Positions 20,917 through 60,587 of a stretch of 64,000 bases of DNA are shown here, piece by piece. Within the stretch, counting starts at the first letter, position 1; each line of letters begins with the position of its first letter. This stretch comes from Clostridiaceae bacterium M8S5 (GTDB taxonomy: Bacteria > Bacillota > Clostridia > Tissierellales > MCWD3): NCBI GenBank assembly GCA_029227815.1, contig CP118523.1, forward strand, positions 4,395,500 to 4,459,499, read 5' to 3'. Below the pieces are notes generated by a model. It saw only the letters and a list, made by a program, of their open reading frames with translations. It searched no databases and had not been told where the DNA came from. Both the position numbers and the translations under genes were made by a program.

Positions 20917-21492
20917 TTGAGTAATATTACAGAGGATAGAATGTATTTTCATAAAGAACAGAAGGTTAATTTACAAGAGTTAAACTGCGATGGTACCATC
21001 TTAGATATAGGCGGTGGTGGAGAAGGCGTAATAGGTAATATATTCAAAGAAAAGGTTATTGCAATTGATCCTAGAAGAGATGAATTAGAAGAAGCTTTAG
21101 AAGGGCCTGTAAAGCTAGTTATGGACGCTAGAAATATGGATTTTCTAGACAATATGTTTGATTATGTTACTTCATTTTTTACACTTATGTATATAGCAAA
21201 GAAAGATCACAAAAAAGTATTGCAGGAGATGTATAGAGTATTAAAACCTAATGGTAAAGTAATGATATGGGATACGTGTATACCTAAACCATTTGTAGAA
21301 GATAAGGATATATATGTCGTGCAATTAGATATATCTACAAAAGATAAGAATATAAAAACTGGGTATGGTACTAAATGGTCTGAAGAAAAAATACAGGATA
21401 TAAGTTACTATATTAAACTATGCGAGGATGTAGGGTTTAGTATTTTAGATAGAAAAGAAGGAGAGATATTCAGTATAGTATTACAAAAATAG
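20917..21492 (+). CDS. Class I SAM-dependent methyltransferase
   Basis: Motif I ILDIGGGGEGVIG; 191 aa; TTG start with an AAAGGGG RBS. Confidence 0.65.
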   Translation: MSNITEDRMYFHKEQKVNLQELNCDGTILDIGGGGEGVIGNIFKEKVIAIDPRRDELEEALEGPVKLVMDARNMDFLDNMFDYVTSFFTLMYIAKKDHKKVLQEMYRVLKPNGKVMIWDTCIPKPFVEDKDIYVVQLDISTKDKNIKTGYGTKWSEEKIQDISYYIKLCEDVGFSILDRKEGEIFSIVLQK

Positions 21493-21504
21493 AACAATAA
21501 AGAC

Positions 21505-21540
21505 AAAGGGACTGTCTATTTTTCCGACAGCCCCTTTTAT
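21505..21540 (+). terminator. Rho-independent terminator (AAGGGACTGTC..GACAGCCCCTTTT)
   Basis: GC-rich imperfect hairpin followed by a T-run. Confidence 0.6.
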
Positions 21541-21563
21541 TAATTTAAAGGAGGTAACTTCAA

Positions 21564-22364
21564 ATGAAAAATAACAATATAAATTGGCAAAAAGAAAGTA
21601 CTCGATTTGATGTTGCATCTGATTATTACGATAAATATCGACCTAGCTATCCTAGTCAAATGATAGAACACCTTTTAAAGTATACAAATATGGTCCCTAC
21701 AAAACAAATATTAGAAATAGGTTCTGGTAGCGGGAAAGCAACAGAACTGTTCGTTAATAGAGGCTATAATTTAACATGTATAGAACAAGGTGTAAACCTT
21801 GTCTCTAAAGGAAACGAAAAGTTTGCTCATACAAATCAAGTCAGTTTTATTAACACTAGATTTGAAGATTGGCATGTATCAAAAAACACTTATGATTTGG
21901 TAATTTCTGCTCAAGCGTTTCACTGGGTTGAAAAACCATTAGGTTTTATTAAGAGTGCAAAAGCCTTGAAACCAAATGGTCATGTTGGGTTATTCTGGAA
22001 TATGTACTATGACGATGAAGATATATCTACAAAGCCACTTATTGATATATGTAAAAAATATGGTGTTGTACCATTTTCAACTCGTAGCAATCTACAGAAA
22101 TTACAACTAATTAACATTAAAGAAATAAATGAAAGCAATGTCTTTAATAAACCTGATGTTTTTGTGTATCCATGGTCTATTATTACAGATTGGCAAGCCT
22201 TTGTAGGCTTTTTAAAAACAGGAAACGGATATATTGCTTTAAAACCTTCCGTTAAAACCCAACTTGAGAACGAATTATTATCAATTTTTAAAGCTTTAGG
22301 TGGAAGTTTTGAGTTTAAATTTAAATGCACACTATATATAGCTCAAAAAAAAATAGCCTCATAA
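21564..22364 (+). CDS. Class I SAM-dependent methyltransferase
   Basis: Motif I ILEIGSGSGKATELF; 266 aa; an AAAGGAGG RBS. Confidence 0.65.
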   Translation: MKNNNINWQKESTRFDVASDYYDKYRPSYPSQMIEHLLKYTNMVPTKQILEIGSGSGKATELFVNRGYNLTCIEQGVNLVSKGNEKFAHTNQVSFINTRFEDWHVSKNTYDLVISAQAFHWVEKPLGFIKSAKALKPNGHVGLFWNMYYDDEDISTKPLIDICKKYGVVPFSTRSNLQKLQLINIKEINESNVFNKPDVFVYPWSIITDWQAFVGFLKTGNGYIALKPSVKTQLENELLSIFKALGGSFEFKFKCTLYIAQKKIAS

Positions 22365-22549
22365 AATGAGGCTATTAGATTGATTACAAAGTCATCAAGA
22401 TAGCAGACTGTGGTAAGAGTTCAAGTTCAAGGCGTGTTAAAATTGAGTAGCACAGCTTACTTAGAGGTAAGTGAGCAACGGAAATTTTGGGACAACGCAG
22501 AAATTGGGCTTTTGTCTACAGTCTGATAGCCTCATAAAAATGAGGCTAT
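22353..22549 (+). repeat. Copy A of a ~148-nt structured repeat element (core 22379-22525), bracketed by two copies of the local terminator hairpin ATAGCCTCATAAA(A)TGAGGCTAT (22353-22375 and 22526-22549)
   Basis: About 90% identical to copy B at 26151-26298 in the same orientation. It has internal stems with compensatory changes, and the flanking hairpin is duplicated on both sides. Confidence 0.7.
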
Positions 22550-25691: not shown

Positions 25692-26075
25692 ATGATTATG
25701 AATTCTGTGGAGCAAGCTGTTTCTAAATATTTTGAGGATTGCAACAAAGGGTGTAACAATATTGTATCTTGCGAAATGCTAGACGAATTGATGGACAATA
25801 ATAAGGAAGACTTATTTATTTTAGACATAAGAAAAGCAGAAGATTTTAAAAAAGGACACATTGATAGTGCTATAAATATTTTTTGGTATGAGTTAGGTGA
25901 ATGTATAGATGTCTTACCAAAAGACAAAAAAATTATAGTTGTTTGCTACTCTGGTCAATCTGCAGGGCAAGTAGTTTCATTGTTAAAAATATTAGGATAT
26001 GATGCATGTTCATTAAAGGGTGGTATGTTGAACGGGTGGTTACAAAGTTCTCTCCCTATTAAAGAGGGCTGCTGA
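25692..26075 (+). CDS. Rhodanese-like (sulfurtransferase) single-domain protein
   Basis: Active-site loop CYSGQSAGQ; 127 aa. Confidence 0.7.
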   Translation: MIMNSVEQAVSKYFEDCNKGCNNIVSCEMLDELMDNNKEDLFILDIRKAEDFKKGHIDSAINIFWYELGECIDVLPKDKKIIVVCYSGQSAGQVVSLLKILGYDACSLKGGMLNGWLQSSLPIKEGC

Positions 26076-26118
26076 GACTAAACTACTTCTCTAGTTTAGA
26101 GAAATTAGTAAAACACTA

Positions 26119-26326
26119 AGAGGATGGCTTATATTAAGCCATCTTCTTAGGTTGATGACAAAGTCATCAAGATAGCAGACTTTAGTAAAAGTTCAATTTC
26201 AAGGCGTGTTAAAATTGAGTAGCAGAGCTTACTTAGAGGTAAGTGAGCAACGGAAATTTTAACAACAACGCAAAAATTGGGCTTTTGTCTAAAGTCTGAG
26301 AGGATGGCTTATATTAAGCCACCCTA
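26119..26326 (+). repeat. Copy B of the ~148-nt structured repeat element (core 26151-26298), bracketed by two copies of a different local hairpin GAGGATGGCTTATATTAAGCCA (26119-26146 and 26299-26326)
   Basis: Same element as copy A; here the flanking duplicated hairpin is specific to this locus. Confidence 0.7.
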
Positions 26327-26840
26327 TTGGATATTAATTACTAGCGTTTTGCAAAATAATATCTTGTATATCTAATAATAGGTGGTGGTTTCTTTCATTA
26401 TATCGGGCTATATCATCACTAATAGTATTTTCTGGGCAATACTTATAACATGCAAGACAGTTTTGACTGATTTTAAAGCTATTGTCGTATAGTTGTCTAA
26501 AATATCTATATCAAATACAGCTTCTTTGAAATTACGGATAAACCGAACTATACTTTTGCAACAATTTATAACTAAAAACATAGCATTTGAATCTAAAGAC
26601 GACAATGATATTTATATTATATAAAATATCATATATATTTTTATATTAAATATCCGAATATCTTTGAGTCTTTATTTTTTAAATAGAACGGAAAAAATCA
26701 TTGAATTTTTAATTTTAGAACGACTAAAGTGCTTAGCTCCGTTTAAATATCGAAACCAAGCACTCGTGTATTAAATTTTAATTAATTGATTGTCCACTTG
26801 ACAAAACCCATTTCAACTAATGAATGTTATCTTAATCTTA

Positions 26841-27575
26841 TTACTTGCTTAACATCATAGCAGCTTCTCTGTCTAATATAACAGTTACATCTGGATGTAG
26901 TTGTAATATCGAAGCTGGTACTTCTGGTGTGATATCTCCTTTTACTGCACTATATATAGCATGTGCCTTACTTTCTCCACTCGCTAGTAGTACTATCTTT
27001 TTTGCTTTCATTATAGATTTTATACCCATACTTATTGCTTTTTTAGGAACTTCATCTACCGAACTAAAGAATCTCGCATTTGCGTTAATTGTATCTTCTT
27101 TTAAGTTGACTAGATGTGTCTCACCAACAAATTTGCTATCTGGTTCATTAAAGCCAATATGACCATTCTGCCCTATACCTAATACCTGGATATCTATCCC
27201 TCCATGTTTATTAATGATTTGATCATAGTATTTACAAGCTTGATCTAGATCTTCAATCTTTGAACTTGGTATAAAAGTATTCTCTTTTTTGATATTAATA
27301 TGTTTAAAGAAATTCTCATTCATATAGTAGTTATAACTTTGACTATTATCTTTATTTATTCCGTAGTATTCATCTAAATTAAAAGATAACACATTACTAA
27401 AGTCAACATCTCCTCTTTTATATGCTTTCACTAATTCTTTATACATACCCAATGGAGTAGAGCCAGTAGCTAACCCTAAAACACTATTAGGCTTTAATAC
27501 TACACAACTCATAATAATACTAGCTGCTTTTTTGCTCATCTCTTCATAATTATCTACAATTATTATATTCATCAA
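26841..27575 (-). CDS. nagB: Glucosamine-6-phosphate deaminase
   Basis: N-terminal MNIIIVDNYEEMSKKAA, GLATGSTP and GIGQNGHIGFNEP motifs; 244 aa. Confidence 0.9.
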   Translation of the reverse strand: MMNIIIVDNYEEMSKKAASIIMSCVVLKPNSVLGLATGSTPLGMYKELVKAYKRGDVDFSNVLSFNLDEYYGINKDNSQSYNYYMNENFFKHINIKKENTFIPSSKIEDLDQACKYYDQIINKHGGIDIQVLGIGQNGHIGFNEPDSKFVGETHLVNLKEDTINANARFFSSVDEVPKKAISMGIKSIMKAKKIVLLASGESKAHAIYSAVKGDITPEVPASILQLHPDVTVILDREAAMMLSK

Positions 27576-32975: not shown

Positions 32976-34694
32976 TTAGCTTCTATCTGTGTAGTGTGTA
33001 TGAAGTAATTCGTGTGACACATGACTTAATGGCTTTTCTAAAAATTCTTCATATAACACAGCTACTGCAGGATTCTTGTGAGATTTTCTAATCTCTGAAT
33101 TTCCATCTATCTGATATATTCCTTTTATTCTATTTTCTCTTATTTCGTTAGTTATAGGTATAGGTTGACCACCTCCACCTATACAACCTCCTGGACAACA
33201 CATAATCTCTATAAAATGAAAATCTTCTTTACCTGATTTGACTAGCTCTAGTATTTCCCTTGCGCTTGCCAGGCTATTTGCTACTGCCACTTTAACATCT
33301 AAATCGCCAACTTTAACTGTAGCTTTTTTAATTCCTTTAAGTCCCCTAACTCCCTTAAATTCAATATTTTCTAGTTCCTCTCCTGTAACTACCTCATAAA
33401 CAGTTCTAAGAGCTGCCTCCATAACACCTCCAGATGCTCCAAATATTACTGCTGCACCTGTTGAAATCCCCAATGGATCATCAAAATTATCTTCTACTAA
33501 TGTATTTATATCAAGCCCAACTTCTTTTATCATCTTAGCTAACTCTCTTGTAGTTAAAACCACATCTACATCCTGATATCCACTATCCGCCATTTCTTTT
33601 CTTCCTGCTTCTGCTTTTTTTGCGGTACATGGCATTATTGAAACTACATAAACATCTTTTGGATCAATACCTATCTTTTTAGGATAATAAGTTTTTGCTA
33701 ACGCACCAAACATCTGTTGTGGTGATTTACAAGTAGAAACATTATCTAAGAATTCTGGATAGAACTGTTCTACAAAATTAATCCAACCAGGGCTACATGA
33801 AGTCAACATTGGCAGTTTACCGTTGTTTTGTATTCTGTGAAGAAGTTCATTTCCTTCTTCCATGATTGTCAAATCGGCTGTAAAATTTGTATCAAACACA
33901 GCGTCAAACCCTAAATGCCTAAGTGCTGTAACTATTTTACCTGTTACTATACTTCCTGGCGGTAAACCAAAATCCTCACCTAATGCAACTCTTACTGCTG
34001 GAGCTATCTGTACAACAACATGTTTGCTATTATCATCTAAAGCACGCCAAACTGTGTTAATATCACTTTTTTCATATAATGCTCCTACTGGACAAACATT
34101 AATACATTGCCCACAATAAACACACTTAGTATCAGCAAGCCCCAAAGAAAAAGGTGTATCTATTCTCATATCACTACTTCTATGAACATTGTCAATAGCA
34201 CCTATACCCTGCACTTCATGGCATACTTCTACACATCTACCACATTTAATACACTTGCTTAAATCTCTAACTATAGATGGATTAGAGCTATCTATAGGCA
34301 AATATTCAACTGTTTTTTCTAGTTTATACTCTCTTATATTTAGTTCATTACATAACTGCTGCAACTCACAATTTCCGTTTCTAACACAGGCAAGACATTC
34401 TGCGTTATGATTTGATATAATCATTTCAACTATTGCTCTTCTTGCATCTCTTACCTTTTTAGTATTAGTTTTTATGACCATACCTTCTCTTACTGGCGTA
34501 CAACATGATGCTGCAAGTGTATTTTGTCCTTCTACCTCTACCACACATACACGACAGCTACCTTTTATATGTTGATCTGGATGAAAACATAATGTTGGTA
34601 TTTTTACATTTACCATTTTTGCTGCATCTAATATAGTTGTTCCATCATCCACAGAAACAGTTTTATTGTCTATAGTCAAATTTATTTTACTCAT
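32976..34694 (-). CDS. hydA: [FeFe] hydrogenase catalytic subunit (HndD/HydA-like): an N-terminal 2Fe-2S domain, 4Fe-4S ferredoxin domains and an H-cluster domain
   Basis: H-cluster motifs L1 TSCSPGW, L2 MPCTAKKAEA and L3 EIMCCPGGCIGGGGQP; 572 aa. Confidence 0.85.
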   Translation of the reverse strand: MSKINLTIDNKTVSVDDGTTILDAAKMVNVKIPTLCFHPDQHIKGSCRVCVVEVEGQNTLAASCCTPVREGMVIKTNTKKVRDARRAIVEMIISNHNAECLACVRNGNCELQQLCNELNIREYKLEKTVEYLPIDSSNPSIVRDLSKCIKCGRCVEVCHEVQGIGAIDNVHRSSDMRIDTPFSLGLADTKCVYCGQCINVCPVGALYEKSDINTVWRALDDNSKHVVVQIAPAVRVALGEDFGLPPGSIVTGKIVTALRHLGFDAVFDTNFTADLTIMEEGNELLHRIQNNGKLPMLTSCSPGWINFVEQFYPEFLDNVSTCKSPQQMFGALAKTYYPKKIGIDPKDVYVVSIMPCTAKKAEAGRKEMADSGYQDVDVVLTTRELAKMIKEVGLDINTLVEDNFDDPLGISTGAAVIFGASGGVMEAALRTVYEVVTGEELENIEFKGVRGLKGIKKATVKVGDLDVKVAVANSLASAREILELVKSGKEDFHFIEIMCCPGGCIGGGGQPIPITNEIRENRIKGIYQIDGNSEIRKSHKNPAVAVLYEEFLEKPLSHVSHELLHTHYTDRS

Positions 34695-35979
34695 TTATTA
34701 TCGCCCCCTTATCGAACAGACAACTGTTTGCTCTACATTCCTTGTTAATATGCTCTTTAATCTCATCTTTAAAATACTGTAAACAAGATATCACAGCTGT
34801 AGGAGCGGCTTGCCCTAGTCCACAAAGGGAGGCCGTCTTCATTACTTCGCAGATTTCTTCTAATATCTCTACATCTTTCTCTGTAGCAACACCTTTGGTT
34901 ATCTTATGCAATATCCTTACTATATGTCTATTTCCCTCTCTACATGGAGTACATTTACCACAAGACTCATGTTTAAAGAACTCCATAGTTGCTAATAAAA
35001 AGTCTAACACGCACACACTATCATCAGCCACAAACATTGCTCCTGAGCCTAAGCTTACTCCGTTCTCTCTCAAGCAATCAAAGTCTATCTTTATATCTAG
35101 TAAATTCTCTGGAATACAGGCTCCTGAAGAACCTCCTAGTTGTACAAATTTAACTTTTTTATCCGTATCCATTCCATCGCATAAATTATTTATTATTTCT
35201 CTTAAGCTAATTCCAAACTCTATCTCAAATACTCCTTTATTCACTACATTACCTGATACAGATATGAGTTTTGTTCCACTACTTGATTTTGTTCCATATT
35301 CTTTGTATTTCTCTGCACCTAAATTGAGTATAACAGGTATATTAGCTAGAGTTTCAACATTGTTAACAAGCGTTGGTTTGTTCCAAAGCCCTGCTACTGG
35401 AGGATAAGGTGGCTTAAATCTAGTCCTTCCTGCTTTTCCTTCTATTGATTCAATTAGTGCAGTCTCTTCTCCACATACATATGCACCAGCACCCGATCTA
35501 ACTTCTATATCAAAATCAAAATTAAACCCAAATATATTAGTTCCTAAATAACCTGCTTTTCTTAAAACATCTATACTCTTTATCAAAAGTTCTTTTGTCT
35601 TAGGATACTCTCCCCTTATATATATATATCCCTTAGTCGCTCCAACTGCGTGACCACAGATTATCATACCCTCTATTATTTGAAATGGACTTCCATCTAA
35701 TAACACTCTGTCTTTAAATGTGCCAGGTTCACCTTCATCTGCATTACATATAACATATTTTATAGGCGAATCTTCAGATGCTGTAAACGACCACTTTAGT
35801 CCAGTTGGGAAAGCTGCTCCTCCTCTACCTCTAAGGTTCGACGCTTTTACCTCATCTAGTACTTCCTGTGGCTTCTTTGAAAGTGCCTTCTTAGTAGCAC
35901 TAAAACCACCATTGCTTTCATATTCAGTTATGGATAGTGGATCTATCTTACCACACAATTTAGATATCAAATTTACCAT
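34687..35979 (-). CDS. NuoF-like NAD(P)H-binding flavoprotein subunit of the hydrogenase (HndC/HydB-like, short form)
   Basis: NADH dehydrogenase 51-kDa family motifs (GRGGAAFPTG, the FMN site, and a C-terminal 4Fe-4S motif CGKCTPCREG); 430 aa. Confidence 0.8.
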   Translation of the reverse strand: MVNLISKLCGKIDPLSITEYESNGGFSATKKALSKKPQEVLDEVKASNLRGRGGAAFPTGLKWSFTASEDSPIKYVICNADEGEPGTFKDRVLLDGSPFQIIEGMIICGHAVGATKGYIYIRGEYPKTKELLIKSIDVLRKAGYLGTNIFGFNFDFDIEVRSGAGAYVCGEETALIESIEGKAGRTRFKPPYPPVAGLWNKPTLVNNVETLANIPVILNLGAEKYKEYGTKSSSGTKLISVSGNVVNKGVFEIEFGISLREIINNLCDGMDTDKKVKFVQLGGSSGACIPENLLDIKIDFDCLRENGVSLGSGAMFVADDSVCVLDFLLATMEFFKHESCGKCTPCREGNRHIVRILHKITKGVATEKDVEILEEICEVMKTASLCGLGQAAPTAVISCLQYFKDEIKEHINKECRANSCLFDKGAIINE

Positions 35980-42180: not shown

Positions 42181-42655
42181 AAAGTATCAAGGGTTTATAA
42201 GATGAAAGAAATACAAGGCATTAAAATGTTTTGTAAAGAACGTTGTACGTGAATTTTTTGATTTACAAAAAATAAGTAACCAAAAAACTAATAGGCGTTG
42301 TATGTCGAGTGAAGTGCAAGGAACATAAAAAATTCTAGTGAATGAGCGTACTAAGGACGTGATTGAACTAATTACTACCGAAAAGGGTTTATAAGAGGAA
42401 TGAGCATACTTAGTATGTATGACTTAAAAATTTTGATTTACAAAAAATAAGAAACCAAAAATTATCTATGATGAGTAAAGTGCAAGGAATAAAAAAATTT
42501 CAGTGAATGAGCGTATTTTAAGATACGTGATTGAACTAATTGCTACCGAAAAATCCCAAGGGTTAATAAGATGAGTGAAGTACAAGGCATTTAAATATTT
42601 TAGCGAGTGAGCGTACTTAGGTACGTGAATGAACTAAAAATTTAAATAACGCAGT
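42181..42655. repeat. Degenerate tandem repeat array (4-5 copies of an ~85-nt unit containing GAGTGAAGTGCAAGGAA...AGTGAATGAGCGTACttagGTACGTGATTGAACTAATTaCTACCGAAAA, with a recurring ~45-nt AT-rich spacer) immediately 3' of the 5S rRNA gene
   Basis: Read directly. Unit starts lie near 42307, 42471 and 42571, with partial copies at 42190 and 42385. The inner hairpin shows compensatory changes (CGTAC/GTACG versus CGTAT/ATACG). Confidence 0.6.
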
Positions 42656-42687
42656 AATTCGCCATCTTAGAAGGCAAACACAAAAAA

Positions 42688-42803
42688 ACTGGCGACGTCC
42701 TACTCTCCCAGGCAGTCTCCCACCAAGTACCATCAGCGCTAAGAGGCTTAACTTCCGTGTTCGGTATGGGAACGGGTGTGACCCTCTTGCTGTAATCACC
42801 AGA
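42688..42803 (-). rRNA. rrf: 5S ribosomal RNA
   Basis: The reverse complement reads TCTGGTGATTACAGCAAGAGGGTCACACCCGTTCCCATACCGAACACGGAAGTTAAGC...GAGAGTAGGACGTCGCCAG, a canonical 5S. Confidence 0.9.
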
Positions 42804-53567: not shown

Positions 53568-56239
53568 ATCTTTTTTATACTTACTGCACTTACTTTTAGT
53601 TCAGGAATTTTACAGATTTCATCCAAATGATTCCCTGTCAGAACATTTGCTGCACCTTGAGCAAAATGAAATGGCATAAAAACAATTCCCCGAGCTATTG
53701 TTTTTACTATCTTGACCTTAGTTTTGATAACACCTCTCCTTGATGAAACTTCCACAATTTCAGCATCTTTTATACAGTATGCTTTTGCATCTAATTCATT
53801 AATCTCTATATATGATTCTGCTGATTTTTTGTTAAGTCCCTCTACTCTACCTGTCATACTCCTTGTATGATAATGGTATAAATTTCTACCAGTAGTCATA
53901 ATAAATGGATAGTCACTGTTTGGTGTTTCAGCGCTTTCTTGATGCTCTTGGGGTAAAAATAGTCCTTTTCCTCTCACACAATGCCCCTCATGCAAAAACT
54001 TAGTACCTTTATGCTCTTTGTCTAAACAAGGCCATTGTAATCCTTTGTTCTCTATTCTACTATAGTCAATCCCTCCATATTGTGGAGTCACTTTTGCTAT
54101 TTCTTTCATTATCTCAGAAGCATTATCGTATGTTTGACTGTATCCAAGCTTATTCATTATTTCCATTATTATTTTCCAATCAGCTTTAGATTCACCAACT
54201 TCAGTAATAGCTTTTCTCACTCTCTGTATTCTTCTCTCTGTATTTGTAAATGTTCCATCTTTTTCAGCAAATGAACTTGCCGGGAGCACAACATCAGCAA
54301 ACATTGCTGTTTCTGTTAAAAATATATCTTGTACTATTAAAAACTCTATGTTTTCTAATGCTTTTCTGACATGTTTTGTATCTGGGTCGGATACAATAGG
54401 GTTTTCTCCCATAATATATAATGCCTTTATATTTCCATCTACTGCACCATCCATGATTTCTGGTATGGTGTAACCTATGTCATTTGACATATCATCTACT
54501 TGCCATGCTTTTTTGAATTTTTCTATTACCTTTTCATCATCAACCTTTTGATAGCCCGGGAAATTATTTGGTAAGGCTCCCATATCACATGCCCCTTGAA
54601 CATTATTCTGCCCTCTTAATGGATTAACTCCAGCCGATTCTATACCAACGTTTCCACATAGTAATGCTAAATTTGAAACGCTCATTACTGTATGTGTCCC
54701 TGTTTTATGTTGCGTTATTCCCATTGCGTAATATATTCCCGCATTATTAGCCTGGGCATAAATTCTAGCAGCTCTTTTTATATCATTAGCATCTATCTCA
54801 CAAATTTTGGCTACTTTTTCTGGAGTATAGTTTTTAACTAAATCTACTAATTTTGCGTATCCCTCGGTCTTCTTTTTTATGTAGTGTTTATCTTCTAGTT
54901 CCTCTGTAATTATGACATACATCATGGAATTCAAAAGAGCTATATTAGTTCCTGGCTTGATTTGTAAAAATACATCAGCATCTTTAGCTAAATCTATTTT
55001 TCTAGGATCTGCTACTATTAATTTTGAACCTCGCTCCTTTGCTTGGAGTATTTTTGAGCCAATTACTGGGTGATTTTCTGTTGTATTTGAGCCTATAACA
55101 AAAATAGCTTCATTATTTATAATTTCACCTATACTGTTTGTCATTGCTCCACTACCTAAAGTTGTTGCAAGACCTGCAACTGTTGATGAATGTCAGAGCC
55201 TTGCACAATGATCAATATTATTTGTTTTCAATACTCCTCTGAAAAGTTTTTGGAATAAATAATTTTCTTCATTAGTACACCTTGCGCTACTTAAACCTGC
55301 TATAACTTTTGACCCATGTTTTTTTCTTATTATATTAATATTTTTTGCTATCGTAGCGTATGCTTCTTCCCACTCTGCCTCGATTAATTTACCCTCTTTA
55401 CGTATAAGTGGTCTTTGTAATCTATCGTCATGATTAATAAACTTATACCCAAACTTACCTTTAACACATAAAAGTCCATCATTTGAGTGTCCTTTTATTG
55501 GATTAACTCCAACTACTTTTTCTTCTTTTACTAATAGCTCCATCTGACAACCTACTCCACAATAAGAACATGTAGTTTTGACTTTTTTTACCTCCCACAA
55601 TCTAAACTTTTCTTTTGACTTAGGTAGTAAAGCACCTACAGGACAAATTGATACACAATTTCCACATGATACACATGTTGAATTGTTGATGTCGTCTTCA
55701 AAAGGCGCACTTACATGTGTTTTGAATCCTCTTTCACTAAATGATATAGCTCTAGTATGTTGTAATTCATTGCATACCCTAACACATTTGCCACATTCGA
55801 TACATTTATTAAGCTCTATAGTGAAAAATGGATTGCTATCATCTAATTCAAATTCTTTTCTTTCTCCATAATAAGACGTCCTATGTACATCATATTCATA
55901 GCAGTATTGCTGCAACTTACATTCCCCTGATTTTTTACATGTTAAGCAGTCTTCTGGATGATTTGATAAAATCATATCTAATATATCACGTCTTGCATCC
56001 ATTACCTTTTGGCTATGGGTCTGTATCACCATTCCTTCTATGGCTATAGTAGAGCATGATGTTGATAACGTTTGCATGCCTTCTATCTCAACTACGCAAA
56101 GTCTACAGGCGGAATGTGGTTCTAATCTGTCATCATGGCAAAGTGTCGGAATTTTGATATTTAATCTTCTGCATATTTGAAGTATAGTTTCTCCTTTTTT
56201 CGCCTGTACTGATTTTCCATTGATTTCTAAATTTATCAC
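53561..56239 (-). CDS. fdhA: Selenocysteine-containing formate dehydrogenase catalytic subunit (FdhA/FdhF-type) with N-terminal 2Fe-2S and 4Fe-4S ferredoxin domains. A single reading frame with an in-frame TGA (Sec) at 55193-55195.
   Basis: Across the TGA the frame reads ...[33 protein letters not shown]..., matching the FdhF ARV-U-HGPSVAGL Sec region. The molybdopterin oxidoreductase 4Fe-4S motif CSYCGVGC is present, and a SECIS hairpin follows the TGA. Confidence 0.85.
55160..55192 (-). promoter_or_regulatory. Bacterial SECIS element: hairpin GUUGCA-GGUCU-UGCAAC, 12 nt downstream of the UGA
   Basis: The mRNA reads UGA CAUUCAUCAACA GUUGCAGGUCUUGCAAC, nearly identical to the E. coli fdhF SECIS apical stem-loop GGUUGCAGGUCUGCACC. 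Confidence 0.8.
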
Positions 56240-57010: not shown

Positions 57011-58765
57011 CTACAGTGGATATATATCTCTTTTTACATAATGAGTATGAAGTAAATCATGTGCTTTATGACTATTTGGCTTTTCAAAATACTCATCGTA
57101 TATTTTCTTAATCATTGGGTTTTTATGAGATTTTCTTATTACTTTTGCCTCATCTTCATTATATAACGCTTTTGCTCTTTCTCTTCTAACGTCTACATTC
57201 ATTTTAACTTTAGAACTAACATGTGGTTGTCCACCACCATTTACACAACCGCCAGAACAACCCATTACTTCAATAAAGTGATATTGCTTTTCGCCAGATT
57301 TAACTTTTTCTAATAATTCACTTGCACAACCTGTACTATGTGCTACTGCAATATTTACATCTAAGTCGCCAATTTTAATTGTAGCTTCTTTTATTCCTTC
57401 TGTTCCTCTTACCTGTGTGAAGTTTATTTCTTTTAATTCTTCGTTTGTTAATACTTCATACACTGTTCTTAACGCAGCCTCCATAACTCCACCTGTAGCA
57501 CCAAATATTACTCCTGCTCCTGATGATTCACCTAATATTGAATCAAAGTCTTCATCTGGTAGATTTACAAAATCTAAACCTGCTTGTTTTATCATCTTAG
57601 CGAACTCTCTAGTTGTCAATACTGCATCAACATCTTGATGTCCATTACAAGCTAATTCTTCTCTTTTTGCTTCGTATTTTTTAGCTGTACAAGGCATTAT
57701 TGAAACTACATATATCTTAGATGGATCTATATTGTTTTTCTCAGCATAGTAAGATTTAACTACTGCTCCTAACATTTCATGTGGAGATTTACATGTTGAT
57801 AAATTGTCTAGGAACTCTGGATAATAATGCTCACAGTATTTTATCCAACCTGGTGAACATGATGTAATCATCGGTAATTTGCCACCATTATTTATTCTAC
57901 CAAGTAATTCTGTTCCTTCTTCCATTATTGTTAAGTCAGCTGCAAAATCTGTATCAAATACTTTATCAAATCCAAGTCTTCTAAGGGCAGCTGCCATTCT
58001 ACCAGTTACTGACGTACCCATTGCTAACCCAAACTCTTCTCCAAGTGCTGCTCTAACCGCTGGTGCTGTTTGAACTACTACATGTATATCTTTATCTTCT
58101 ATAGCATCCCATACATAATCTATCTCAGTTTTTTCTCTTAATGCTCCTACTGGACATGACACTATACATTGTCCGCAATTTATACATGGAGTATCTCCTA
58201 TTTCTTTATCAAAAGCTGGTGATACAGTAGACTCGAAGCCTCTATTTGCATAGTTTAGTACCCCTATTTTTTGAACATCATTACATACACTTACACATCT
58301 ACCACACAAGATACATTTATTTGGATCCCTTACTATTGAAGGTGATGATGTATCTACTGGTCTTATAGTTTTTTCACCTTTAAACTCTATATCTGTTACA
58401 CCTAACTCTTCACAAAGTGTTTGTAACTCACAGTTATGGTTTCTACTACAAGTTAGACATTCTCTATCATGATTTGATAAAAGTAATTCTAAGTTTGTCT
58501 TTCTTGCCTCTCTGATTTTCTTGGTATTTGTTCTAATAACCATACCTTCACCAACTTTGGCAACACATGATGCTTGTAAAACCCTAGCTCCTTCTACATC
58601 TACTAGGCACATTCTACAGGCTCCTGTCTGGTTTACATCTTTTAAATAACAAAGAGTCGGTATTTTAATTCCAGCACTATTTGCTGCTTCAAGTATAGTA
58701 TATTCTTCTGGAACTTGAATTGATTTATTATCTATAGTAATGGTAACCATACCCATCATATACAC
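57011..58765 (-). CDS. hydA: [FeFe] hydrogenase catalytic subunit HydA (bifurcating HydABC / HndD type)
   Basis: L1 TSCSPGW, L2 MPCTAKKYEA, L3 EVMGCSGGCVNGGGQP, with N-terminal 2Fe-2S and ferredoxin domains; 584 aa. Confidence 0.85.
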   Translation of the reverse strand: MYMMGMVTITIDNKSIQVPEEYTILEAANSAGIKIPTLCYLKDVNQTGACRMCLVDVEGARVLQASCVAKVGEGMVIRTNTKKIREARKTNLELLLSNHDRECLTCSRNHNCELQTLCEELGVTDIEFKGEKTIRPVDTSSPSIVRDPNKCILCGRCVSVCNDVQKIGVLNYANRGFESTVSPAFDKEIGDTPCINCGQCIVSCPVGALREKTEIDYVWDAIEDKDIHVVVQTAPAVRAALGEEFGLAMGTSVTGRMAAALRRLGFDKVFDTDFAADLTIMEEGTELLGRINNGGKLPMITSCSPGWIKYCEHYYPEFLDNLSTCKSPHEMLGAVVKSYYAEKNNIDPSKIYVVSIMPCTAKKYEAKREELACNGHQDVDAVLTTREFAKMIKQAGLDFVNLPDEDFDSILGESSGAGVIFGATGGVMEAALRTVYEVLTNEELKEINFTQVRGTEGIKEATIKIGDLDVNIAVAHSTGCASELLEKVKSGEKQYHFIEVMGCSGGCVNGGGQPHVSSKVKMNVDVRRERAKALYNEDEAKVIRKSHKNPMIKKIYDEYFEKPNSHKAHDLLHTHYVKRDIYPL

Positions 58766-58793
58766 CCCTTACTTTTATTATTTTTATATTTAA

Positions 58794-60587
58794 TTATCCT
58801 AATTTAATTGCATTAAACGGACATTTCTCCATACATGCACCACATTTTATACATTTCTCTTGATCAATACTATGAGGCTTTTTAGTCTCTCCTTCAATTG
58901 CATCAACAGGACAAGCTCTAGCACACAATGTGCATCCTTTACAAGCATCTTCTATTATGCTATATGCTAATAAATCTTTACAGTTTCCTGCTGGACATTT
59001 TTTATCTAATACGTGTGCTTCATACTCGTGTCTAAAATACTGTAATGTTGATATTACTGGATTAGGAGCTGTTTGGCCTAACCCACATAATGCTGAAGCT
59101 TTAATACTATCTGATAACTTCTCTAGCTTATCGATATCTTCTAGCTCTCCATTTCCACTAGTTATTTTCTCTAATAACTCTAACATTCTCTTGGTACCTA
59201 TTCTACATGGTGTACACTTTCCACATGACTCTTCAACTGTGAAATCCAAAAAGAATCTAGCTATATCTACCATACAGTTATCTTCATCCATAACAATCAT
59301 TCCACCAGAACCCATCATAGATCCTAAAGCTGTTAACGAGTCATAGTCTATTGGAGTATCTAAATACTCAGCAGGGATACATCCTCCTGATGGTCCACCT
59401 GTTTGAACAGCCTTAAACTTTTTACCGTTTGGAATACCTCCACCGATATCATATATTACTTCTCTTAGAGTTGTTCCCATAGGTATCTCAACTAAACCTG
59501 TATTATTTATTTTTCCACCCAATGCGAATACTTTTGTTCCTGGTGATTTTTCAGTTCCTATACTTCTAAACCACTTTGCACCATTATTAATGATACTTGG
59601 TATATTTGCATAAGTCTCAACATTGTTGATTAATGTTGGTTTGCCCCATAGACCTTTGTTAGCAGGATATGGTGGCTTATTTCTAGACATTCCTCTTTCC
59701 CCTTCTATAGAAGCAATTAACGCCGTCTCCTCTCCACAAACAAAAGCTCCAGCTCCAAGTCTTATTTCTATATCAAAGTTAAATCCACTACTAAAGATAT
59801 TTTCTCCTAAAAGTCCTTTCTCTTTAGCTTGCTCAATTGCTATTTCTAATCTTTCTACAGCTATAGGATATTCAGCTCTTACATATATAAATCCTTGATC
59901 TGCACCTATTGCATAACCTGCTATTGCCATCGCCTCTAAAACAGCATGCGGATCTCCTTCAAGTATACTTCTATCCATAAAAGCACCTGGGTCTCCTTCA
60001 TCCGCATTACATATTACATACTTTTGGTCTCCTTTTGCACTAGCACAGAATCCCCATTTTAAACCTGTAGGGAATCCTCCACCACCTCTTCCTCTTAATC
60101 CTGAATCTTTTATTACATCTATAACCTCTAAAGGTTTCATTTCAGTTAAGACTTTACCTAGAGCCATATATCCATCAACTGCTATATACTCATTTATATC
60201 TTCTGGATCTATAACTCCACAGTTTTTAAGCGCAACTCTAGTTTGTTTCTTATAGAAGTTTACTTCATTAACTGACTTAATTATGTCTTCTTCCTGAGCT
60301 CCTTTATAAAGAAGATCTTTAACTATTCTACCTTTTAATAAGTGTTCTTCTACTATAGTATCAACGTCTTCTAACTTGATATGGCTGTAAAATGCTCCTT
60401 CAGGATAGACAACGATTATAGGACCTGCCTCACATAGTCCAAAACATCCTGTTCTAACAACCATTATTTCCTTATCCAATCCAGCTTCTTGGATTTTTTC
60501 TTTCATTTTCTCTTCTATTTTATCAGATTTTGAAGATGTACATCCTGTACCTCCACAAATTAATACATGTGATCTGTAAAAATCCAT
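58794..60587 (-). CDS. hydB: NuoF-like flavoprotein subunit HydB/HndC (long form with an N-terminal thioredoxin-like domain and C-terminal ferredoxin domains)
   Basis: GRGGGGFPTG, an FMN/NAD-binding core, a C-terminal 2x CxxCxxCxxxCP; 597 aa. Confidence 0.85.
   Translation of the reverse strand: MDFYRSHVLICGGTGCTSSKSDKIEEKMKEKIQEAGLDKEIMVVRTGCFGLCEAGPIIVVYPEGAFYSHIKLEDVDTIVEEHLLKGRIVKDLLYKGAQEEDIIKSVNEVNFYKKQTRVALKNCGVIDPEDINEYIAVDGYMALGKVLTEMKPLEVIDVIKDSGLRGRGGGGFPTGLKWGFCASAKGDQKYVICNADEGDPGAFMDRSILEGDPHAVLEAMAIAGYAIGADQGFIYVRAEYPIAVERLEIAIEQAKEKGLLGENIFSSGFNFDIEIRLGAGAFVCGEETALIASIEGERGMSRNKPPYPANKGLWGKPTLINNVETYANIPSIINNGAKWFRSIGTEKSPGTKVFALGGKINNTGLVEIPMGTTLREVIYDIGGGIPNGKKFKAVQTGGPSGGCIPAEYLDTPIDYDSLTALGSMMGSGGMIVMDEDNCMVDIARFFLDFTVEESCGKCTPCRIGTKRMLELLEKITSGNGELEDIDKLEKLSDSIKASALCGLGQTAPNPVISTLQYFRHEYEAHVLDKKCPAGNCKDLLAYSIIEDACKGCTLCARACPVDAIEGETKKPHSIDQEKCIKCGACMEKCPFNAIKLG

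Follow-up and report, generated by a model that had tools for sequence, protein, structure and literature searches.

Small non-coding elements between duplicated stem-loops in Clostridiaceae bacterium M8S5, and a wider structured family resembling ERIC

Background

A core of about 150 nt occurs twice in a 64-kb stretch of DNA from Clostridiaceae bacterium M8S5, and each time it stands between two copies of a hairpin that belongs to that place alone. What kind of element keeps its core from site to site while its flanking hairpins change? For the copy at 26119-26323 (copy B), the original prediction was a non-autonomous mobile element that inserts into a terminator and duplicates it as a long target-site duplication. 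We examine that proposal by comparing both copies, their neighbourhood, a syntenic genome and related elements elsewhere. Coordinates refer to the window, by which we mean the whole 64-kb stretch of DNA that was analysed.

Results

Copy B and its flanks

In the whole 64-kb window, GAGGATGGCTTATATTAAGCCA has exactly two occurrences (+ strand, 26120-26141 and 26300-26321), against a chance expectation of 0 even when up to 3 mismatches are allowed. A 5' A adds to the identity, so that copy B is indeed bracketed by identical left and right repeats, exact over 23 nt (26119-26141 / 26299-26321); the two bases that follow are TC in the left copy and CC in the right, and a looser form of the flank repeat (38 nt, 84% identity) was also detected. 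The 9-bp stem GATGGCTTA/TAAGCCATC that had been assigned to these flanks is present in the left one, where it grows to a 16-bp stem, but in the right one the 3' arm reads TAAGCCACC, with one mismatch to the stem. The parts of copy B are as follows.

26119..26143, + strand: left stem-loop duplicate, AGAGGATGGCTTATATTAAGCCA exact and then TC; the stem is 16 bp over 26116-26150
26144..26147, + strand: TTCT, of uncertain assignment, from direct reading and inference
26148..26298, + strand: copy B of the element itself (151 nt; termini TAGG...GTCTG), in which a small-hairpin 5' extension leads into the rod
26152..26170, + strand: 5' small hairpin, TTGATGAC-AAA-GTCATCAA, within the left TIR-like end
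26176..26298, + strand: rod-like hairpin CAGACT...AGTCTG, -48.8 kcal/mol, z = -9.5
26200..26246, + strand: conserved apical module consisting of CAAGG, a stem, a GA-rich internal loop, GCTTAC-loop-GTAAGT and GA
26299..26323, + strand: right stem-loop duplicate, AGAGGATGGCTTATATTAAGCCA exact and then CC

The junction is untidy, with four extra bases and the T/C mismatch, and TTCT may be filler at the junction or, if the duplication was originally 29 nt long, its diverged tail. Copy B lies 3' of a rhodanese-domain gene (25692-26075, Pfam PF00581), as first described, and the distance to the 3' end of the nag operon, put originally at about 530 bp, measures ~518 bp to nagB (26841-27575).

Copy A and the locus-specific hairpins

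The core of copy B is ~92-94% identical to that of copy A (22375-22527). The hairpin on either side of copy A is unrelated to that of copy B; its two versions, ATAGCCTCATAAAATGAGGCTAT at 22353-22375 and ATAGCCTCATAAAAATGAGGCTAT at 22526-22549, differ by one extra loop A. As the original prediction had it, each locus has flanks of its own around a common core.

22353..22375, + strand: left stem-loop duplicate of copy A, ATAGCCTCATAAAATGAGGCTAT, with an A9 tract before it
22376..22525, + strand: copy A element, 150 nt, with termini TAGA...GTCTG
22526..22549, + strand: right stem-loop duplicate of copy A, with one extra loop A and a T-rich tail after it; terminator-like on the + strand

The first TA of copy A could belong to the duplication instead of the element. 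Copy A lies in a bidirectional terminator between convergent genes. Because its left hairpin is preceded by the A9 tract, it reads as the terminator of the - strand cvpA-like gene; it keeps this T9 tract for the - strand, while the right hairpin keeps the T-rich tail for the + strand. Subtracting the element and one repeat from the sequence yields a canonical A-tract/hairpin/T-tract bidirectional terminator. The claim that the target is a terminator is borne out at copy A but not at copy B, where the hairpin has no canonical T-tract and 'stem-loop' is therefore the safer term.

Structure and coding capacity

Both copies are built alike: a small hairpin occupies the 5' segment, the rod (CAGACT...AGTCTG) takes up the next ~123 nt, and the termini are TAG(A/G)...GTCTG. 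Compared with shuffled sequences, they fold at z of about -10 to -11 with their flanks, and the rods alone at -7 to -9.5. The + strand of A and B folds more stably, and where the two copies differ at the rod base, the changes compensate each other. The core is non-coding: the only ATG-initiated frame has 6 codons, and copy A does not preserve it. No promoter-like site was found inside either copy.

The terminal inverted match (TIR) is imperfect in the window copies, in which TAGGTTGATGACAAAGTC corresponds to the reverse complement of the right end, CAGACTTTAGACAAAAGCC, centred on GACAAAG; it is clearer in copies from a MAG described below (CAGGATGTTGACAAAGT versus CAGAGCGCTGACAAAGC). A hairpin equivalent to the small one of copy B, GTTGAC-AAA-GTCAAC, is present in the MAG copies L111 and L105. 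Overall, the element ends can be written (T/C)AGG...TGACAAAG, with a right end ...CTG. A length of 150-151 nt, the lack of coding capacity, imperfect TIRs and a copy-specific flank duplication (at six insertions, including those in the MAG) are all features of a MITE.

Genes of the window and further copies

A Pfam scan covered 30 ORFs, namely those of the 19-30 kb neighbourhood together with most, not all, of the window ORFs of at least 180 aa. Around the copies are genes for DUF2089/DUF4097 proteins, two methyltransferases, CvpA, a DUF5711 protein, a membrane protein, the rhodanese and NagB/NagA/NagR; the other scanned ORFs are core chromosomal (ParB, DnaB, PurA, hydrogenase genes), and an rRNA operon is also present. 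Transposase, recombinase and RT domains were absent from these 30 ORFs, in line with the original reading that neither a transposase nor a reverse transcriptase is adjacent. NagB is 100% identical to a protein of Clostridiaceae bacterium M8S5, and its next relatives are 71-74% identical; the contig of the closest of them ends 51 nt after nagB, which makes the site comparison uninformative. Elsewhere in the window, paralogous Fe-S / hydrogenase-related segments at 34209-35548, 55760-55981 and 58271-59811 form direct repeats of 67-78% identity.

A sensitive search of the whole 64-kb window found no full copies beyond A and B, and one diverged relative.

42561..42675, + strand: u3, a diverged family member, rod only; 80.8 bits with the covariance model R1 described below; no flank duplication seen

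This unit (rod z = -5.7) is the final one of a degenerate tandem array beside a 5S rRNA gene. The array spans 42185-42690 on the + strand, with 3-4 units of ~110-175 nt each, and adjoins the 5S rRNA gene at 42687-42803 on the - strand; u1 and u2 are decayed, and flank duplication was not seen. Directly adjacent tandem rods also occur in gut Firmicutes (Scatosoma, Christensenellales; L037:2408-2723, L037:4482-4727, L009:966-1383). We considered whether tandem arrays might be element/hairpin/element structures from repeated insertion and rejected this, the inter-unit hairpins being basal stems of adjacent rods.

Duplicated stem-loops at other insertions

An unrelated GC-rich Firmicutes MAG, CAWVKS01, holds four sister insertions, each with its own duplication consisting of one complete stem-loop.

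L111: duplication of 26 nt
L008: duplication of 27 nt
L110: duplication of 28 nt
L012: duplication of ~32 nt, with one loop mismatch

Their termini are constant (CAGGATG...GCGCTCTG) and the 5' small hairpin is the same. A T-run follows solely the distal hairpin in three of the four (L111, L110, L012), and L008 has instead an A-run ahead of the left hairpin. Lengths of 156, 200, 279 and 351 nt, in order of size, occur among the elements with identical termini at these loci, a variation that arises because internal modules are present or absent. In the copy at L110:513-668 the left hairpin is complex and duplicated only in part.

Over the six insertions (two in the window, four in the MAG) the duplications range from 23 to 32 nt and follow the size of the hairpin, starting and ending at the feet of the stem. 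Whole stem-loops duplicated at varying length indicate that the duplication is set by structure and not by a fixed length. The original prediction of a long target-site duplication holds in that a duplication is present; it is not the classic one of fixed length, but one whole stem-loop. The hairpins differ at all six insertions, in agreement with the earlier argument that they are not part of the element. Recurrence of the pattern at the four CAWVKS01 insertions, together with a core that lacks coding capacity, supports the proposal of a non-autonomous mobile element. Site-specific recombination would not yield this pattern, because the flanks differ between loci.

A syntenic site without the element

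Inspection of empty sites had been suggested from the outset, and Abyssisolibacter fermentans, which is syntenic across the whole 16-30 kb segment, offers a genus-level comparison. Its rhodanese/nagB gap is 145 bp, versus 766 bp here, and contains a single bidirectional terminator hairpin with no element; the family model found no member in 20 kb of this genome. A. fermentans shows the ancestral-type, one-hairpin state, although, as another genus with another hairpin sequence, it does not represent the exact pre-insertion allele.

Two further differences between the genomes lie close to the copies. The ~500 bp of AT-rich DNA between copy B and nagB (26330-26840) have no counterpart in A. fermentans and contain a 65-aa ORF (26408-26605, - strand) with no Pfam match, as well as several promoter-like sites. 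The A. fermentans locus (L001:14549-15084), otherwise syntenic, lacks the two methyltransferase genes that directly precede copy A (20917-22364), so that copy A abuts a lineage-specific indel.

A wider structured family

Positions common to A, B and u3 gave the search pattern CAAGG N16-26 AGCNTACTTAG N0-2 GTANGTGA, for which we estimate that ~2 hits would arise by chance across 596 Gb. More than 111 matching loci were listed, and this number is a lower bound. Most of the listed loci come from Desulfobacterales and Thermodesulfobacteriota MAGs, in which one genome contributes many loci and several lie at true contig ends. Bacillota are represented by the GC-rich 'uncultured Firmicutes' HiFi MAG, Christensenellales, Coproplasma and Scatosoma; Bacteroidota by Alistipes, Rikenellaceae, Paludibacteraceae and Bacteroidales; and Enterobacterales by Serratia and Buttiauxella.

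A covariance model (CM, R1) was built from 29 dereplicated members, excluding the window and the enterobacterial sequences. Copy A (76.1 bits), copy B (72.3 bits, 26178-26294) and u3 are recovered over their full length, with blocks outside the pattern (GUUCAAG.UCAAGGCG and AACGCAGA.AUUGG.CUUUU) among the matched positions, and the model also detects members within the loci that the pattern had not picked. In 59 aligned members, 95% of cells are paired, versus 74% when shuffled and 17-43% with slid partners, and double-sided changes occur in 191 cells versus 58 expected, a number reached by none of 500 shuffles. The apical helix is closed by a near-invariant G.U. The strand running from CAAGG to GTGA folds better than its complement in all 93 distinct copies (mean -50 versus -40 kcal/mol), and the orientation of the copies to neighbouring genes is mixed.

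Searches of Rfam 15 with the window, both copies and 16 related loci gave no family at gathering or permissive thresholds, only rRNA/tRNA matches. Plasmid and phage BLAST with the core, and plasmid BLAST with the MAG and Desulfobacterales elements, returned no matches. Exact-word scans with core blocks found nothing in viral contigs and, with a 19-mer, nothing in genome contigs; six matches in metagenome contigs are chance or unrelated. The family is absent from Rfam 15 and from the literature searched, and it spans Desulfobacterota, Bacillota and Bacteroidota.

Members of the Desulfobacterales branch behave like conventional multicopy MITEs: they are ~150 nt long and have a TIR (GATGG..CGTAAAAAGTC) and A/T-rich direct repeats of ~7-8 nt, often CAAnnnTT; these TIRs and direct repeats, with many copies per MAG, indicate that the family is mobile. 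Examples among L011-L118 are L028:6242-6358 and L048:2864-2981. Some copies of this branch have a variant end (GGACTTCTAAGTAAC / CCTTGGAAGTC), which might belong to another element or to a parent IS. Copies of the Desulfobacterales type also occur on short contigs of Bacteroidota MAGs (L076, Tangfeifania; L100, Bacteroidales), a finding explained either by misbinning or by recent horizontal transfer. As flank signatures differ among branches (~7-8 nt here, TA in ERIC), it would be unsafe to extend one mechanism to all of the family. The internal module is common to the family, and the ends and the insertion signature depend on the lineage.

No conserved protein neighbour was found among the 111 loci listed, nor were there near-identical large ORFs common to the loci. 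Recurrent neighbour clusters (histidine kinases, sigma-54 activators, ABC ATPases) are ordinary paralogous families and were set aside.

Relation to ERIC

Among known elements, ERIC (IRU, RU-1) of Enterobacteriaceae and Vibrionaceae invite comparison. Like the family described here, ERIC/IRU are long imperfect palindromes in intergenic positions (~127 nt, compared with the ~123-nt rod), and both may be co-transcribed. The order of blocks is also the same: CAAGGC, an apex GAGCTTAC-loop-GTAAGTGA with tandem G.A, and AACGCAG. The full 22-position family pattern is matched in Serratia, in Buttiauxella and by an ERIC copy on a viral contig (L121:3675-3792, an IMG/VR contig classed as viral, with an ERIC-type copy and complete apical pattern). 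The Serratia locus is a bona fide ERIC: it matches a repeat of ~130 bp that every one of 5,426 E. coli genomes carries, the median genome having it at 12 sites. One E. coli copy has the exact ERIC2 primer site.

The family sequence profile (nhmmer) misses the canonical E. coli ERIC, and the CM scores it at 16 bits (E = 0.18). ERIC insertion duplicates TA and ERIC RNAs affect mRNA stability (PMC2229807), whereas here the duplication is a 23-25-nt stem-loop; ERIC also lacks the extra 5' arm. ERIC has been described only from Gammaproteobacteria (PMC2229807, PMC10969869), and Clostridiaceae bacterium M8S5 lies outside its range (Enterobacteriaceae, Vibrionaceae). Given the failure of the profile to detect E. 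coli ERIC, the lack of a TA duplication and the different host range, we reject membership of the window element in ERIC. We nonetheless regard ERIC, with reasonable though incomplete confidence, as the known element that looks most like the family and as possibly its distant relative.

Discussion

Taken together, copies A and B are probably non-autonomous, MITE-like mobile elements of ~150 nt with an ERIC/IRU-like apical module, whose insertion would be directed by structure and would duplicate a whole stem-loop, with an enzyme acting in trans that is likeliest of the IS1182 family. Such an element would begin with an imperfect terminal repeat carrying the small hairpin and continue into a rod of ~120 nt whose 3' arm forms the right terminal repeat. 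In the Firmicutes branch, DNA structure and not sequence would direct insertion: each end of the element may be transferred to one strand of a stem-loop or cruciform (in most cases an intrinsic terminator), the two transfers falling at opposite feet, and gap repair would then copy the entire stem-loop, leaving one hairpin on each side and a duplication as long as the hairpin. Of the two hairpins, the proximal one is cut off from its U-tract and the distal one retains it, so that termination of the host gene would persist, and the folded element would presumably be carried in the 3' UTR of that gene. The two direct copies of the hairpin would allow precise loss.

The enzyme in trans would most plausibly be an IS1182-family DDE transposase, like that of IS1272 but transferring at the 5' feet. 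Direct repeats of IS1182 elements are reportedly listed in ISfinder as 0-60 bp. IS1272, of the IS1182 family, targets stem-loops (22, 24 and 30 bp) in a structure-dependent way; of its new insertions, two lay downstream of genes and the third inside the 3'-end region of one (PMC5678879). The insertions observed delete the stem-loop, for which attack at the cruciform feet was proposed, and the same model contains a hypothetical pathway b, by which a transfer to the 5' feet would leave the entire stem-loop duplicated (PMC5678879). The likeness lies in recognised structure, in targets of variable size and sequence and in their position near gene 3' ends (Wan et al. 2017, PMC5678879); moreover, the left end of IS1272L is tandemly duplicated (PMC5678879), reminiscent of the extra left-end repeat here. 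The difference is that IS1272 is a 1.9-kb autonomous element that deletes its stem-loop, whereas the present elements are 150 nt, non-coding and accompanied by a duplicated stem-loop; replacement without duplication, the IS1272 outcome, is not matched at any of the six insertions. IS1182-derived MITEs exist (MITEPye1, PMC11578231), and clostridia are rich in IS1182 elements (PMC3098183). On this combination of the IS1272 precedent, IS1182-derived MITEs and clostridial abundance, we propose mobilisation in trans with transfer at the 5' feet.

The related autonomous element that had been sought, a partner with matching ends, did not turn up in the scanned window ORFs, the 111 listed loci or plasmids. 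Paired termini 0.7-3.5 kb apart were considered as a possible autonomous version and rejected, since host genes lie between two separate copies. The elements share small size, lack of coding capacity, TIRs, target duplications, intergenic location and a long stem-loop RNA fold with bacterial MITEs such as MITEPye1, Correia and RUP, and differ from MITEs in general in that the duplication is a whole stem-loop of variable length versus 2-10 bp, and in an internal module conserved across phyla. Cas1-Cas2 makes strand transfers at the borders of a partly palindromic repeat, and gap repair duplicates the whole repeat. CRISPR spacer integration serves here as an analogy only, and differs in that the insert has defined ends and no CRISPR array or cas gene is present.

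Of the other explanations, the one we would place next, while considering it unlikely, is a structured RNA gene or 3'-UTR module whose hairpins are functional (the 5' one protective, the 3' one a terminator) and which arose through local duplication or selection instead of transposition. Strong covariation, the near-invariant G.U, the better folding of one strand in 93 of 93 copies, z values of about -11 and the effect of ERIC RNAs on mRNA stability (PMC2229807) all fit such a module. Flanking hairpins that are unrelated between loci, identical within a locus and recurrent in another genome do not fit it, nor do the TIRs, short direct repeats and high copy numbers of other branches, the mixed orientation to genes and the want of a promoter-like site within either copy; besides, a role as RNA is compatible with mobility and is not an alternative to it. 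Somewhat less probable still is a transposase with a fixed long staggered cut, of the IS1202 subgroup, to which the hairpin would be incidental. IS1202-subgroup elements do occur in Firmicutes, and their direct repeats of 27-28 bp, sometimes 29 bp, overlap our 23-32 nt; but those repeats are fixed per subgroup, while a fixed stagger would not yield the range seen here, which tracks the hairpins and is bounded by the feet of the stem, and the IS1202 ends are TGT...ACA as against (T/C)AGG...CTG.

Hairpins are also central to single-strand (HUH) or RNA-guided hairpin-targeting elements (IS200/IS605-type PATE or IS110-like), and both the strand-specific folding and a left junction adjoining TTAG/TTGAT-like motifs would suit them. 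We judge this very improbable: PATE and IS110-type elements carry subterminal hairpins of their own, the same in every copy, and duplicate no target, whereas these hairpins are locus-specific and duplicated; TnpA, TnpB and IS110 genes are absent from the scanned ORFs, and there was no Rfam match to an omega- or bridge-type RNA. Class C group II introns home beside terminator stem-loops. This habit, together with the variable-length duplications typical of target-primed reverse transcription (TPRT), would accord with a retro-element inserted at terminators by that route, which we nevertheless hold to be the least probable of all these readings, given that the scanned window ORFs and the fetched loci contain no RT domain, that no Rfam intron or retron RNA matched, that TIRs are present and that the duplications end exactly at the stem feet. 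We therefore retain structure-directed transposition of a MITE-like element as the preferred reading.

Conclusions

Relative to the literature searched, two things are new: the duplication of a whole stem-loop, of structure-defined length, by a small non-autonomous element, and a cross-phylum, strand-specific family that shares its apex with ERIC. A much bolder reading, which we offer as speculation and think rather doubtful as a whole, is that the apical module (CAAGGC, stem, tandem G.A, 6-7-bp hairpin, AACGCAG) may be a functional single-stranded motif, likely RNA, carried by different mobile chassis across at least four phyla. ERIC would then be the enterobacterial branch, and the Firmicutes branch would duplicate terminators by cruciform-foot integration, parking a hairpin-protected RNA in 3' UTRs with termination unbroken and with the insertion reversible through the direct hairpin repeats.

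If the preferred reading is correct, these insertions would be natural examples of an outcome that has so far only been modelled, cruciform-foot transfer duplicating a whole stem-loop, and of a target duplication whose length is set by DNA structure. It would also explain how an element can insert into a terminator, one of the safest and most abundant kinds of intergenic target, and yet leave termination intact. On the practical side, short-read assemblies break at such elements, whose local direct repeats can drive deletions. Finally, ERIC, long known but a mechanistic orphan, is placed beside a wider structured family in Desulfobacterota, Bacillota and Bacteroidota, which opens a route to the mobilising agent and to what the conserved module binds.
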